DNA from: Candidatus Latescibacterota bacterium | GTDB lineage: Bacteria > Latescibacterota > UBA2968 | DNA length: 64,000 nucleotides | Assembly: GCA_965205975.1 (NCBI GenBank) | Contig: OZ242195.1 | Span: 1,216,001-1,280,000 of the forward strand | Direction of reading: 5' to 3' | Shown here: positions 45,078 to 49,830 of the stretch, one piece after another | Layout of the letters: each line of letters opens with the position of its first letter | Position numbering within the stretch: position 1 is the stretch's first letter | Program-made: the position numbers and the translations under genes | Notes under the pieces: model-generated | Databases searched by the model: none | The model's input: the letters and a program-made list of their open reading frames with translations, nothing else | What the model was told of the DNA's origin: nothing

Positions 45078-45178
45078 CGTTGATTGGTAGAGCACGCTGT
45101 GGATAAAATAGCATCTTGCCTCCTAAAGCCATCTGTATTATGTTTAGAATAGGTTATGAGAACTCCAAAGGAGTCTTT

Positions 45179-45490
45179 ATGTCTCAGAAAATTACTGATG
45201 TAATAGGTGCAGACGATCAGTCTGATGTGCTGAAAACCATGGCACAACAAGAACTTGCCAGAGCAAAAAAAAAGATTCAAGCCATCAATGAAGATGTACT
45301 GAACTCCGAGGGACTTACTGACGATGAGGCAGATGCTGCTATTGAAGCAGGACTGATAGCAGCAGATCAAAAATACTGGTGGCTTGAAGAGTGGCAGAAG
45401 CATCATCGAAAAGCGGAAGAGGATATTAAAAAAGGATGTGTCAAGGAGTTTGATAGCCCCGAAGCATTTCTCAATTCCCTGCCTTCATGA
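45179..45490 (+). CDS. Putative type II antitoxin
   Basis: DQKYWWLEEWQ..AEEDIKKG.VKEFDS tail; stop overlaps toxin ATG (ATGA). Confidence 0.7.
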   Translation: MSQKITDVIGADDQSDVLKTMAQQELARAKKKIQAINEDVLNSEGLTDDEADAAIEAGLIAADQKYWWLEEWQKHHRKAEEDIKKGCVKEFDSPEAFLNSLPS

Positions 45491-45744
45491 GATATATCCA
45501 AACCAACCAATTCAGGGAGGCATTTGCAAAGCTCCCGCAACACATCCAACAACGAGCCAAAAAACAACTCGCCCTCTTTTTTCAAGATTATCGTTACCCC
45601 TCCTTGCAAACTAAAAAGATGGAAGGTCACAATGACCTTTTTGAAGGTAGAGTTACCAGAGGCTACCGCTTTATCTATCGCATTACTGGTGATATTTGTT
45701 ATATCATTGATATTGGTACACATGATATTCTAAACCGATATTAA
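45487..45744 (+). CDS. RelE/ParE-superfamily toxin
   Basis: FREAFAKLP, YPSLQTKKMEG, FEGRVTRGYRFIY, DIGTHD. Confidence 0.85.
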   Translation: MRYIQTNQFREAFAKLPQHIQQRAKKQLALFFQDYRYPSLQTKKMEGHNDLFEGRVTRGYRFIYRITGDICYIIDIGTHDILNRY

Positions 45745-45774: not shown

Positions 45775-46671
45775 ATGTCAGAACAGAACTATCGCGTTGC
45801 GCCGCTGGGGTTTACGCGGGATCAGTGGGAGGAATTTCAAGAGGATGGCATGCTCGTTGTGGAAGACGCGTTGACAGACGAAGAATGCGATCGCTATATC
45901 GAGATGATGGATGCTGCGGCTGCCCGTAGTGAAAAATACGATCCCGGTAAATTTTTTGGTCCAAACAATATCGTGGAGCGGTATCCGGAATTTGCCGAGT
46001 TGATCGATCATCCCCGGCATATCGGCTTTATGCACGATGTGTATGGCGAATTGTTAAAACTCCATATTTCTCAATTTTTCTTGCGTCCTCGCGATACGAG
46101 CCGCAACAAATGGCATCCCGATGGCGCGCGCGCTTTGCCCTATGGCGTTTTTTCACCGGTTTTGCCCATACAAATCAAAGTGGCGTATTGGCTGACTGAT
46201 CTTCCCGAGCCGGATATGGGAAATTTTGTCTATATGCCCGGCAGTCATAAAGGGCAGTATTTTGATTTTTACGATACCCATGATGAAGTTCCCGGCGAAA
46301 AAGTAATTTGTCCAAAGCGCGGCACGATGACGTTTATGCACTGCAATACCTGGCATCGCGTGGCACCCAATAATACGGATGTTGTGAGAAAAAATATCTT
46401 TTTGGCTTATTGTCCATCGTGGGTTTGCGAAGCGGACCGGCACCAATGTGATCCCGGTTGGCTCGCTACACTGAACCGCGAACAGCGCATTATTATGCGT
46501 AGCTACAATAGTGGCTATGCGAGGACCAAGCCCGCAGCCAGTGAATTTCCGCTCTTTCTGGATCGGGAAACGGGTTCTGATCGAGACTATGGCGTTTGGC
46601 CCGATCACGTTGAGTTGCATCGGCGCAAACGCATGACCACAGTTGAAAAATTTGAGTTGGCATCTACTTGA
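45775..46671 (+). CDS. Phytanoyl-CoA dioxygenase (PhyH) family Fe(II)/2OG oxygenase
   Basis: WHPD, PGSH, TWHRV, RKNIF. Confidence 0.88.
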   Translation: MSEQNYRVAPLGFTRDQWEEFQEDGMLVVEDALTDEECDRYIEMMDAAAARSEKYDPGKFFGPNNIVERYPEFAELIDHPRHIGFMHDVYGELLKLHISQFFLRPRDTSRNKWHPDGARALPYGVFSPVLPIQIKVAYWLTDLPEPDMGNFVYMPGSHKGQYFDFYDTHDEVPGEKVICPKRGTMTFMHCNTWHRVAPNNTDVVRKNIFLAYCPSWVCEADRHQCDPGWLATLNREQRIIMRSYNSGYARTKPAASEFPLFLDRETGSDRDYGVWPDHVELHRRKRMTTVEKFELAST

Positions 46672-47630
46672 TGCAGGAGGCTGTTGTGAAGGTTTTGATT
46701 AATGATCGCCTGGACGATCATCACCTAAGGCAGATTCAATCGTCGGTTGAGGATATCGATCTGGTCATCCCCGATTCAAGTGACGATGCGCTGGAAATTA
46801 TGCCCGAAATTGATATCGTTTTTGGGGGTATGAGCCGCGATATGTTCAAACGCGCCGAACGCTTGAAGTGGGTGCAGACCTGGGGCGCGGGCGTCGATGG
46901 GATGATGTATGCCGAGTTTGTCCATAGTGAGGTGATTCTGACGAGTGCAAAGGGCACTGTAGGCGTTCATTTGTCGGAACACGCGATGGCTCTTTTGCTT
47001 GGATTGACCCGAGGAATTGCACGCGCGATCAGAACGGCTGATTGGGATGAGCGCATGCCGATCCGCCACGCATCGTGGGAATTGATCGATAAAACAATGG
47101 GAATTGTGGGATTGGGGGGCACGGGATGCGATGTCGCTATTCGAGCGCATGCGTTTGGCATGAGAATTATAGCTGTTGATCCAGAGGACGTCGAGGTGCC
47201 AGACTGTGTAGAGGCCTGCTGGAAGATGGATCGCTTTTACGATCTTTTATCCGCGTCTGATGTCGTGGTGGTCTGCTGCCCACTGACCGAGGAAACGCGC
47301 GGGCTTTTCGACCACCTGGCATTTGAGAAGATGCAGAATCACGCGCTTTTGGTCAATGTCACGCGGGGTAAAATTATGGATGAGGCATCTCTGGTCAAAG
47401 CATTGACAAGCAGGCAGATTGCCGGGGCGGGGTTGGATGTGACGCCGCAAGAGCCATTGCCTGATAGTCATCCGCTGTGGCATATGCCCAATGTTATTAT
47501 CACACCTCATACTGCGGGAGGCTCTCCCAATAGGCAGAACCGTATTGTGAATCTGTTTTGCGAAAACTTGCGGCGTTTTCTAAATGGGGAAGATATGCTG
47601 AGTGTAATCGATAAAAATAAGGGGTATTGA
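46671..47630 (+). CDS. D-2-hydroxyacid dehydrogenase
   Basis: GAGVD, GLGGTG, NVTRG, LDVTPQEPLP, TPHTAG. Confidence 0.92.
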   Translation: MQEAVVKVLINDRLDDHHLRQIQSSVEDIDLVIPDSSDDALEIMPEIDIVFGGMSRDMFKRAERLKWVQTWGAGVDGMMYAEFVHSEVILTSAKGTVGVHLSEHAMALLLGLTRGIARAIRTADWDERMPIRHASWELIDKTMGIVGLGGTGCDVAIRAHAFGMRIIAVDPEDVEVPDCVEACWKMDRFYDLLSASDVVVVCCPLTEETRGLFDHLAFEKMQNHALLVNVTRGKIMDEASLVKALTSRQIAGAGLDVTPQEPLPDSHPLWHMPNVIITPHTAGGSPNRQNRIVNLFCENLRRFLNGEDMLSVIDKNKGY

Positions 47631-47724
47631 ATACGTTTTCTCTTGACACAATGTTACAAATATATTGATATTTACAACGAAGCAGGTGCTGGCGTGTATT
47701 ATTTAGTATAATTCTATGTATTTA

Positions 47725-47819
47725 ATGGTCTCGGGCAAGGGTGACCCGAGGTCATGTGCCCTTCTCCTAAGTAGGAATCCCTGTGTTGGGGTCACCGAAT
47801 CGGGAGAAGGGCGTTTTTT
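47725..47819 (+). promoter_or_regulatory. Structured leader RNA / attenuator candidate
   Basis: TATAAT at 47707; hairpin 47725-47755; stem 47758-47767/47803-47812 followed by T6; alternative 8-bp pairing 47740-47747/47789-47796. Confidence 0.5.
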
Positions 47820-47883
47820 GTGTGGCAGCACCACAGTAAGGCGTTATATTAGGCGGTCAAAAAGGTAAGAAGGAGGTTTTTGA

Positions 47884-49830
47884 GTGGCTTTAGCAAGAGA
47901 AGCTGTTGTTCCAGAAACTGCCAGACCTGCCGTGACATTCCGCGCACTCGTTTTGGGTACTTTTCTCACGATGATGGCGACGATTGCCGGGTCTTACGCG
48001 AGATTTATTCTTCACACTACGAGGTTGGACCAAAACCATCTTTCAGTCGCTGCTGTTTTTCCCATTGTTGTGATCGCGCTCGTGCTTTTGCGCCCGCTCA
48101 AGCTGAGTCGGGGCGAGCTTATCGTCATGTTTTCTATGGCATTGATTGGCGCGACTATGCCCACGTATTTTGTCGGGAAATTGATCGCCAATTTTACGGT
48201 GCCGTACTATTTGGCAACGCCCGAGAATCAGTGGGCAACCTATTACGAACCCTATTTGCCAGAGTGGTCTATTCTGCCCGCGGGCGAATCTCTGCGATGG
48301 TTTTTTGAAGGGCTACCGCGCGGAGTTTCCGTGCCGTGGGATGCGTGGATTGTGCCCGTGTTCTGGTGGATGACCGTGATTGTGGCTTTTTATGGCTGCT
48401 GCCTTTTTTTAATGGTCATTCTGCGAAAGCAGTGGATAGAGCACGAACGCATTGATTATCCGCTGATGGAAATGCCTTTGGCTGTGATGGAGGAGGATAG
48501 ACGACAGGGCTTTTTTCCAATTCCCATTATGAATAACCCGTTGTTCTGGGCGGGCTTCAGTCTTACGTTGTGTATTATCCTGTGGAATGTCATTTCCTAT
48601 TTTAGTCCGACTTTTCCGACGATTCCATGGCGCTTTGCGAGTATTCAGTTTGGGCGCGAATTTCCCCCCATTCCCGTGCGTCTATATCTGATGGTTGTGG
48701 GCTTTGGGTATTTTATAAATCTGGATATTTCGCTGAGCCTGTGGGTGTTCAATGTGCTGACCAATCTGGAAAATGGCTTTTTTAACCGCTTTGGGCTAAA
48801 AGCCGGTACAGATGAAGAGTATTCCACAGGACCGCTGGCGATGGGTGCGCAATCCATGGGGGCATTTATTGTGGTGGTGCTCGTGGGCTTCTGGATGGCG
48901 CGCGGGCACTTGCGCGGGGTTTTTCGCAAGGCATTTTATCGCGATGATTCGGTTGACGATTCCGATGAGATCGTTTCGTATCGCACGGCGGTTTTTGGCC
49001 TTATGGCCTGTTCTGCCTACCTGATTGTGTGGCATTTGGCAACGGGCATGGCGTTTAAGTATATCCCAATTTTTCTTTTTGGTGCTCTGGTCATGTATCT
49101 GGGGATTACGCGGGTTATAGCAGAGACCGGTCTGATTTCTATTCGCGCCCCCCTGATGCCGCAACCTTTTGCCATGTTTGTAATGGGATCAGATGTGCTT
49201 TCGCAGCAGACGCAGGTTTCTATCGCGCTTTCGTATTCATGGTGCAGCGATACCAAAACCACAATCATGCCCGCGCTTGCCCATTCCGTAAAGCTTTACG
49301 ATACTATCCGGGTCAATCAGCGGAGGTTGATCATTCCCATTGTTCTGGCAATGGGTGCCGGGGTGTTGGCTACATTTGTCTATACAATTTATATGGGCTA
49401 TTTGAATGGCGCTGCAAATTACGGCGGTATTTTTCACGGAGGTCTCGCGCGGTTTCCCTGGGATAATCTGGTCAAGAAGTCAAAAGATCCATTTTCTGTG
49501 CAGTGGTTGCCTATTATGTATATGGGTATTGGCGCTGTGGTGACGCTGCTTTTTATGATTTTGCGCTATCGAGTCGCGTGGTGGCCGCTACATCCGATTG
49601 GATTTGCGGCTGGGCCGGTTTATCCGGTTAATAATGTCATTTTTGCAATTTTTCTCGCCTGGGCGATCAAGTCTATTGTTTTGCGGATTGGGGGCATTCG
49701 CGCCTATCGCACGGGTCGGCCTTTTTTTATTGGGCTTATTATGGGGCATTTTGTAGGAGCTGGCATTTCGTTTGTCGTCGATATGATCTGGTTTCCGGGA
49801 CAGGGGCATAGTATTCCGTTTTCGGATTAA
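47884..49830 (+). CDS. DUF6785/DUF6784-type polytopic membrane protein (putative transporter)
   Basis: Many TMs; ILRKQWIEHERIDYPL, RVIAETG, WWPLHPIGF. Confidence 0.75.
   Translation: MALAREAVVPETARPAVTFRALVLGTFLTMMATIAGSYARFILHTTRLDQNHLSVAAVFPIVVIALVLLRPLKLSRGELIVMFSMALIGATMPTYFVGKLIANFTVPYYLATPENQWATYYEPYLPEWSILPAGESLRWFFEGLPRGVSVPWDAWIVPVFWWMTVIVAFYGCCLFLMVILRKQWIEHERIDYPLMEMPLAVMEEDRRQGFFPIPIMNNPLFWAGFSLTLCIILWNVISYFSPTFPTIPWRFASIQFGREFPPIPVRLYLMVVGFGYFINLDISLSLWVFNVLTNLENGFFNRFGLKAGTDEEYSTGPLAMGAQSMGAFIVVVLVGFWMARGHLRGVFRKAFYRDDSVDDSDEIVSYRTAVFGLMACSAYLIVWHLATGMAFKYIPIFLFGALVMYLGITRVIAETGLISIRAPLMPQPFAMFVMGSDVLSQQTQVSIALSYSWCSDTKTTIMPALAHSVKLYDTIRVNQRRLIIPIVLAMGAGVLATFVYTIYMGYLNGAANYGGIFHGGLARFPWDNLVKKSKDPFSVQWLPIMYMGIGAVVTLLFMILRYRVAWWPLHPIGFAAGPVYPVNNVIFAIFLAWAIKSIVLRIGGIRAYRTGRPFFIGLIMGHFVGAGISFVVDMIWFPGQGHSIPFSD

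Follow-up and report, generated by a model that had tools for sequence, protein, structure and literature searches.

The stretch of DNA considered here is a window of 64,000 nucleotides (nt) from contig OZ242195.1 of assembly GCA_965205975.1 (Candidatus Latescibacterota bacterium), and all positions are those of this window on its forward strand. Between an open reading frame (ORF) ending at 47630 and ORFs starting at 47880-47884, and with no coding overlap, lies a two-hairpin element with its core at 47725-47819. It is a real, conserved and uncatalogued structured RNA, and probably a stand-alone RNA gene. A preliminary description of the locus had offered, as its main option, a switch controlling the DUF6785 gene that follows and, as its second, a stand-alone small RNA (sRNA) of about 100 nt; it is the second that is supported here. 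The present genome is designated G000, other genomes of the same genus are numbered in the G0xx series, and homologous loci elsewhere carry L numbers. The features are as follows.

47643 to 47672, plus strand: sigma-70-type promoter, TTGACA (47643-47648), 18 nt, GATATT (47667-47672), matching the consensus at 10 of 12 positions.
47707 to 47712, plus strand: TATAAT, a candidate second -10 box that would place the start just before P1, present in 16 of 21 genus sequences.
47725 to 47755, plus strand: P1 hairpin, 11 bp with two G-U pairs (47725-47735/47745-47755), pair probabilities 0.86-1.0.
47736 to 47744, plus strand: P1 loop CAAGGGUGA with a GGGUGA core, conserved and exposed in type A members (defined below).
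47758 to 47812, plus strand: P2, the intrinsic-terminator stem around the 3' module, with a perfect 10-bp helix (47758-47767/47803-47812) enclosing 35 nt, pair probability about 1.0.
47770 to 47776, plus strand: 5' strand of the module (AGUA, GG and an unpaired A), near-invariant in sequence, its three-dimensional motif predicted.
47777 to 47792, plus strand: P3 hairpin with a variable loop, from pair probability and covariation.
47793 to 47799, plus strand: 3' strand of the module (CA, which is GA in most homologues, then CC and GAA), near-invariant in sequence.
47814 to 47819, plus strand: U-tract of six T and predicted 3' end, with 4-7 T in 21 of 21 genus sequences.
47822 to 47850, plus strand: predicted promoter-like site 3' of the terminator (GTGGCA, 17 nt, TATATT), a motif match.
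47884 to 49830, plus strand: gene for a 648-aa protein with Pfam domains DUF6785 and DUF6784, probably not a regulated target.
46668 to 47630, plus strand: 2-hydroxyacid dehydrogenase gene (Pfam), a syntenic marker of the locus both within the genus and in G024.

The TATAAT box, P1, the 10-bp stem and the run of six T all lie where the preliminary description had placed them, and GGTGACCC (47740-47747) is indeed complementary to GGGTCACC (47789-47796); the GTG start codon at 47884 stands 64 nt past the U-tract, for which about 65 nt had been given. The predicted fold of 47720-47820 has a free energy of -46.5 kcal/mol (z -4.4), equalled by none of 200 shuffled sequences. Because the minus strand likewise outperforms its own shuffles (-38.4, z -5.1), the strand was taken from the promoter and the U-tract. 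The 35 nt within P2 had been regarded as an open loop, but GG at 47774-47775 pairs with CC at 47795-47796 (probability 0.91) and encloses a hairpin that had been overlooked, P3 (47777-47781/47788-47792; pair probability 0.81-0.88). Together, the GG/CC step and P3 occupy most of the strand claimed as the partner of the P1 loop. Forbidding P2 carries a penalty of 23 kcal/mol, and no antiterminator stem was found within 23 kcal/mol of the terminator fold, a result that does not by itself exclude a switch of the guanidine-IV type.

The structure formed by P1, P2, the GG/CC step and P3 was examined in a MAFFT alignment of 23 diverse homologues, where it is 91.9% paired and 14 of its 25 pairs have changed on both sides, a result matched in none of 500 shuffles. 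Two-sided changes occur at six of the eight counted pairs of P1, with 91% of its cells paired, and at 4 of 11 pairs of P2. The three core pairs of P3 all covary in 50 sequences, with 19 two-sided cells against 5.7 in shuffles (0/500). Covariation among the homologues thus supports P1, the P2 terminator and P3 alike.

The proposed 8-bp kissing contact, pseudoknot or competing fold between the two complementary strands fares differently, being paired at 64.7% in the 23 homologues against 64.9% after shuffling (336 of 500 shuffles as high); it is perfect in only 13 of the 21 genus sequences and, as a nested fold, costs 17-19 kcal/mol. A complement of at least 8 nt between P1 and a shuffled 35-nt loop arose in 0.6% of 20,000 shuffles. 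Its presence here is explained by a near-palindromic GGT-N-ACC motif that the family carries twice: the 3' domain of most homologues reads GGUGACCGA, a direct repeat of the P1 motif, and a single G-to-C change in the present genus has turned the repeat into a complement. A 4-bp version of the pseudoknot was rejected as well, being intact in 12 close sequences but failing at its G-G middle among the wider homologues, only 9 of 23 of which are paired there. A leader peptide was also set aside on inspection, as ATG or GTG stands at the foot of P2 in some members with no common frame or stop. Separately, GGTNACC occurs 554 times in the present genome, about half the count of two of three similar words (803-1131), perhaps reflecting restriction-site avoidance.

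The element is single-copy in the present genome, and its core occurs in 20 of 20 same-genus genomes at 95-98% identity, the flanks in the four most distant of these retaining 35-58% (52 nt upstream) and 48-56% (64 nt downstream). An exact 20-nt pattern from the element recovered 20 genome records, of which 18 are Latescibacterota, one is unclassified and one is from Devosia; the last was rejected, having no score with the covariance model. Across the class, covariance model R1 matched 37 of 132 genomes and model R2 matched 38, with up to four copies per genome. By taxonomic family, the R2 matches fall in 29 of 30 (f1), 5 of 22 (f2), 3 of 3 (f3) and 0 of 76 genomes (f4), and three credible genomes belong to other classes. 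A pattern search of metagenomes yielded 27 loci, some identical to genome loci, and 25 of them score with R2 at E<1e-5; L127 and L130 are chance pattern matches. The 60-nt 3' module is seen in two further families of the phylum, and a module-only model (R3) reached at least 43 bits in 36 of 151 phylum genomes, whereas its best score in a control set of 151 genomes from an unrelated phylum was 26.4 bits; scores below 30 bits were discarded as equal to the control level. Weak model matches at L156, L157, L100 and the plus strand of L105 were rejected as plain terminators or antisense echoes.

Rfam 15 holds no match over the element at E<=10, and the homologous loci gave no Rfam match at threshold in two tests of 13 and 15 loci. 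Viral contigs, phages and plasmids contain no match to the element or its family, which together with its single copy speaks against an interspersed repeat or mobile element. A housekeeping RNA was likewise rejected, the signal recognition particle RNA and 5S RNA lying elsewhere in the genome and 6S RNA (RF00013) having no match anywhere in it. No description of the family was found in the literature, subscription papers and supplementary motif lists lying outside that search. Among the findings that would have refuted the preliminary description, a lack of conservation, a lack of covariation and a match to a repeat or an Rfam family were thus each looked for and did not turn up.

The family signature lies within the terminator and consists of GUA-GG-A, P3 and GA-CC-GAA. 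Among 61 distinct sequences (68 matches less three non-members and four duplicates), GUA and the unpaired A are each present in 59, GAA in at least 50 and GA in at least 45, the last two being lower bounds, with two rows mis-anchored. The GG/CC pairs are invariant in 50 of 50 sequences, and the length enclosed by P3 varies from 3 to 23 nt. In the sarcin-ricin (bulged-G) loop signature, GAA is the strand opposite AGUA, itself known as a sarcin-ricin loop strand (PMC13085918). The two strands that face each other here probably form such a loop, judging from their sequence. A mimic of 5S loop E for protein L25 was considered because the 5S RNA of this genome has AGUAGG and CCGAUGGU, but only half of the loop is matched. 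In the P1 loop, columns G18, T19 and G20 of alignment A3 are at least 90% invariant, and GGGUGA is a candidate seed or protein site.

All 21 genus sequences retain the TTGACA-N16/18-GATATT promoter, which in three genomes (G011, G017 and G018) stands just 14-15 nt before P1; from its motif, it is likely the promoter of the RNA. The TATAAT noted in the preliminary description is present, but it lacks a conserved -35 box and is outnumbered by TTGACA/GATATT, which is the conserved promoter of the genus. At the level of sequence, then, the element has what is asked of a stand-alone sRNA, a promoter motif of its own and a U-tract in all 21 genus sequences. An inverted repeat at 47686-47709, of which the 3' arm overlaps TATAAT, reaches 8-9 bp in several relatives and is mostly G-U here, and G010 and G019 bear an additional inserted hairpin nearby. 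Beyond the terminator, the GTGGCA/TATATT spacing is kept in 18 of 21 genus sequences, and this site is the probable promoter of the DUF6785 gene itself. Sequence from 47400-48200 is represented in part in eighteen RNA sequencing runs, of which 13 have small word shares. Four runs, two from the small-share set, were examined as assembled contigs only: the contig from run X8 stops at 47820, those from X3 and X9 cross the terminator to 47855-47856 (about 36 nt), and X1 has no contig over the element. Stretches left uncovered in these four runs carry no weight as evidence, and neither do the other small-share runs.

Outside the genus, 51 non-redundant loci were compared in their genomic context. 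Type A (23 loci) resembles the present element and has the P1 loop GGGUGA; type B (16) has a near-invariant 5' stretch and measures about 75 nt from its sigma-54 promoter to the terminator; type C (6) is a multi-hairpin RNA of about 190 nt; and six loci are of other kinds. Promoter motifs stand at fixed spacing, with a CRP-like box before 16 of the 23 type A loci, in 15 cases 93-101 nt from GUAGG (background 1.3% per window scanned), and a sigma-54 box before all 16 type B loci at 64-70 nt (background 0.8% per window scanned), both patterns having been written after the sequences had been seen. The 3' module is reused, being joined to the GGGUGA hairpin of type A, to other hairpins (L140, L123) and to the multi-hairpin 5' part of type C. 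The next gene is convergent and identified by Pfam at 9 of the 51 loci, and convergent by ORF call at four or five more. The same-strand next genes are unrelated and include a CHASE4 kinase, a response regulator, a transglycosylase, a PQQ repeat protein, aroA, a cupin and a sigma factor, aroA lying downstream of some type B copies and divergently upstream of others. The present genome retains the flanking genes of ancestral type A and type B loci, with no RNA detected there.

Some of these relatives have peculiarities of their own. At L142 (540-650), a sigma-54 box is followed by a long hairpin with an anti-Shine-Dalgarno loop, the 3' module and then a gene of the sigma-70 family. The 5' end of type C RNAs (L094, L112, L132 and L144, also L101 and L102) carries an H-type pseudoknot just 5' of the R2 matches, in which a GAAGCCG hairpin loop has its partner, CGGCTTC, some 12 nt farther 3'; compensatory changes occur in both the stem and the loop pairing. 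In L094, L112 and L132 this pseudoknot lies 8-11 nt past the stop codon of an unannotated gene, and in the other type C loci it lies farther downstream. It could be an exonuclease block on an RNA derived from a 3' untranslated region, and it is not present in G000. L101 (2900-3174, minus strand) and L102 (2167-2430, plus strand) hold two tandem copies, the second with its own TTGACA-type promoter, without the pseudoknot and with a decayed 3' module.

A working model can be drawn from these parts. The RNA would be about 100 nt long if it began at P1 and about 140 nt long if the distal promoter were used, and it would end at its own intrinsic terminator. It would comprise two modules. The 5' module is a hairpin that displays a short loop, GGGUGA in this case, and the 3' module is the terminator hairpin, in which a presumably rigid internal loop of the sarcin-ricin type is combined with two G-C pairs, an A/GA loop and a cap that varies. 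A putative protein docking on the 3' module would stabilise or escort the RNA in the absence of Hfq, and the 5' loop would pair with RNA targets. For this mechanism taken whole, a stand-alone, trans-acting sRNA with both a protein-docking handle and a P1-loop seed, the chances appear about even. Bolder, and offered only tentatively, is the suggestion that the module is a general handle replacing the Hfq system, with one putative protein serving unrelated seed hairpins, G-rich and anti-Shine-Dalgarno ones among them, whose promoters would be of the CRP-like, sigma-54 and sigma-70 kinds. For the question of how sRNAs regulate in bacteria without Hfq, ProQ, CsrA, KhpA or RRM proteins, the family offers a bait, a 60-nt module near-invariant across much of the class and fused to varied 5' hairpins.

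Partners for the RNA were sought among proteins and loops. Hfq (PF17209) matched 0 of 132 class genomes in a search that was positive in 5 of 14 control genomes, and an Hfq-dependent sRNA was rejected on this count. CsrA and RRM_1 each matched 0 of 20 genus genomes and gave no match in the present genome, which also has no match to KhpA or ProQ. A 15-bp, G-U-rich hairpin on contig C1 of G000 (near 3921522, minus strand) immediately precedes a gene of 321 aa; the hairpin is single-copy, and its UUCACCC loop is complementary to GGGUGA over 6 nt.

Several observations weigh against a stand-alone, trans-acting RNA. The search for Hfq, CsrA, RRM_1, KhpA and ProQ found no partner protein; exact 11-mers revealed no convincing complement in non-coding DNA, with nothing beyond chance; and a loop scan of 407 sites gave 19 candidate loops, none of which stood out (three were inspected). 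Most type A copies precede a same-strand gene, largely at one syntenic zinc-ribbon locus, and among the 23 a clearly convergent next gene occurs only at L110 and L092. At about five type A loci (L090, L104, L105, L133 and L135), a start codon stands 2-30 nt past the U-tract, and those genes may therefore depend on read-through. The RNA contigs, with one stop at 47820 against two crossings, speak neither for nor against termination there, and sequence kinship inflates covariation tests based on shuffling.

RsmY/RsmZ and CrcY/CrcZ are sRNAs that titrate a protein, and by analogy the present paralogues, under CRP-like, sigma-54 and sigma-70 control, might sequester one RNA-binding protein through the module and a GUGR(U)RCCGA motif. 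Such a role would suit the several paralogues per genome under different promoter types, the module as the sole part common to all types, and the recurrence of GUGR(U)RCCGA, which most type A and type B members carry in each of their two domains and which type C repeats several times. It is nevertheless unlikely, as each RNA has a single module, the 5' part is highly conserved among members of one type but differs from type to type, CsrA, Hfq and RRM_1 were not found in the genus, and the sole GGA has its GG paired. The last feature, with the missing CsrA, also led to the rejection of a sponge of the CsrB/RsmZ type.

Quite improbable is a conditional terminator acting in cis, either a riboswitch or a protein-controlled attenuator, on the next gene, here DUF6785, by way of a loop-loop contact like that of guanidine-IV instead of an antiterminator stem. 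The two-hairpin outline and the many invariant unpaired bases would fit, 20-22 of the 23 homologues could form a 3-bp GGU/ACC contact, and the type A start codons close to the U-tract and the two contigs that cross the terminator point the same way, as does G017, which has DUF6785 but lacks the downstream promoter motif. The 8-bp contact, however, does not covary, and the CC that it would need is engaged in the invariant GG/CC pairs; type B RNAs run only some 75 nt from sigma-54 promoter to terminator; and with the next gene convergent at no fewer than nine of 51 loci, and unrelated where it lies on the same strand, the family is not consistently found 5' of related same-strand genes, as a riboswitch would be. 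Within the genus, DUF6785 follows the element in 19 of 21 genomes, 64-176 nt away, and in the other two (G011 and G018) the core is unchanged without it. Outside the genus, DUF6785 is never the gene that follows a homologue, and only one of 34 DUF6785-like loci in the present genome has the element. The option first favoured in the preliminary description is thus not supported, and the element is probably not a switch for this adjacent membrane-protein gene, the product of which, described there as an uncharacterised transporter, matches Pfam DUF6785 and DUF6784 only and has no NCBIfam match; a false riboswitch lead for DUF6785 is thereby removed. Farther upstream, at 45116-45744 of the window, a pair of small genes, of which the second has a ParE-like domain, is a probable type II toxin-antitoxin module.

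The G-rich P1 loop might also mimic a Shine-Dalgarno sequence, as a decoy for the 16S anti-Shine-Dalgarno or a sponge for C-rich anti-Shine-Dalgarno sRNAs. Type A loops would pair with the 16S 3' end of this genome at -8.3 to -10.9 kcal/mol (-8.3 for the element itself), the DUF6785 ribosome-binding site at -13.4, and a relative with an anti-Shine-Dalgarno loop exists in L142. The prospects of this reading are slim, since the type B 5' region pairs weakly (-5.2), inspection found no conserved reading frame past the loop, and no matching partner loop stood out in the present genome. The least probable reading is a cis-antisense RNA paired, as in type I toxin-antitoxin systems, with a small holin-like membrane gene on the other strand: eight of the 23 type A loci (L106, L107, L109, L093, L086, L114, L115 and L122) have a sigma-70-like antisense promoter that faces the 3' end of the RNA, and six type A loci have a divergent hydrophobic ORF of 80-84 aa, five with weak holin matches (phrog_1299, E 0.0009-0.14), but the present genome has no tblastn match to this ORF family, its own locus has no antisense promoter, and types B and C have neither. 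The six ORFs lie at L107:1985-2233, L135:248-490, L109:1241-1489, L115:30-284, L122:891-1136 and L120:203-448, with no Pfam match among the two tested.

Among known systems, Qrr, RsmY/RsmZ, CrcY/CrcZ and GlmY/GlmZ are sets of redundant paralogues under different promoters, often sigma-54, and need Hfq, CsrA or RapZ. The present family differs in that Hfq was not found in the class, nor CsrA in the genus, and in having no Rfam match. Closest to the presumed way of working of the present family, as paralogous seed-plus-terminator sRNAs, is FopS of Bacteroides thetaiotaomicron, a group of multi-copy sRNAs in which a conserved 5' seed leads into an intrinsic terminator and which are bound by the RRM protein RbpB (PMC11697453). 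FopS differs in its single-stranded seed, its 12-15 copies and its RRM partner, RRM_1 not having been found in the present genus, and the cited excerpts of its report describe no internal module in the terminator, unlike that of the present family. Guanidine-IV (GGAM-1), of which the aptamer includes the terminator and needs no antiterminator stem, likewise combines a 5' hairpin with a terminator hairpin; bases in its loops are conserved, and a contact between the loops has been proposed (PMC7736828). The likeness is one of outline only (PMC7736828; PMC11611296), as GGAM-1 is, by the accounts cited, consistently upstream of genes, mostly sugE, and has a covarying pseudoknot, and the present family has neither trait. 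Within Rfam, the module itself most resembles TEG147 (RF03535), a bona fide 60-nt sRNA of Staphylococcus aureus (PMC5826253) included in Rfam since release 14 (PMC7779021), with a loop that is a strong sarcin-ricin match by JAR3D (PMC13085918). Its consensus places AGUAGgA, a short hairpin and CGAAA within a terminator stem, and so resembles the family module in sequence. TEG147 lacks a 5' domain, however, and its consensus lacks the unit of GG/CC plus A/GA; the cited excerpts describe no function for it. Its model scores the best family member, L113, at 31.8 bits (E 0.013) against a cut-off of 56.1 bits, which was reached in none of 31 family genomes, the present genome having no match; the likeness may reflect either convergence or remote kinship. 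Were the module truly a general handle, TEG147 would be a handle-only member of a wider, unrecognised class. The element thus belongs to none of TEG147, FopS or guanidine-IV. It is of the multi-copy sRNA kind, distinguished by a reusable module embedded in its terminator and by its occurrence in a lineage without known sRNA chaperones.

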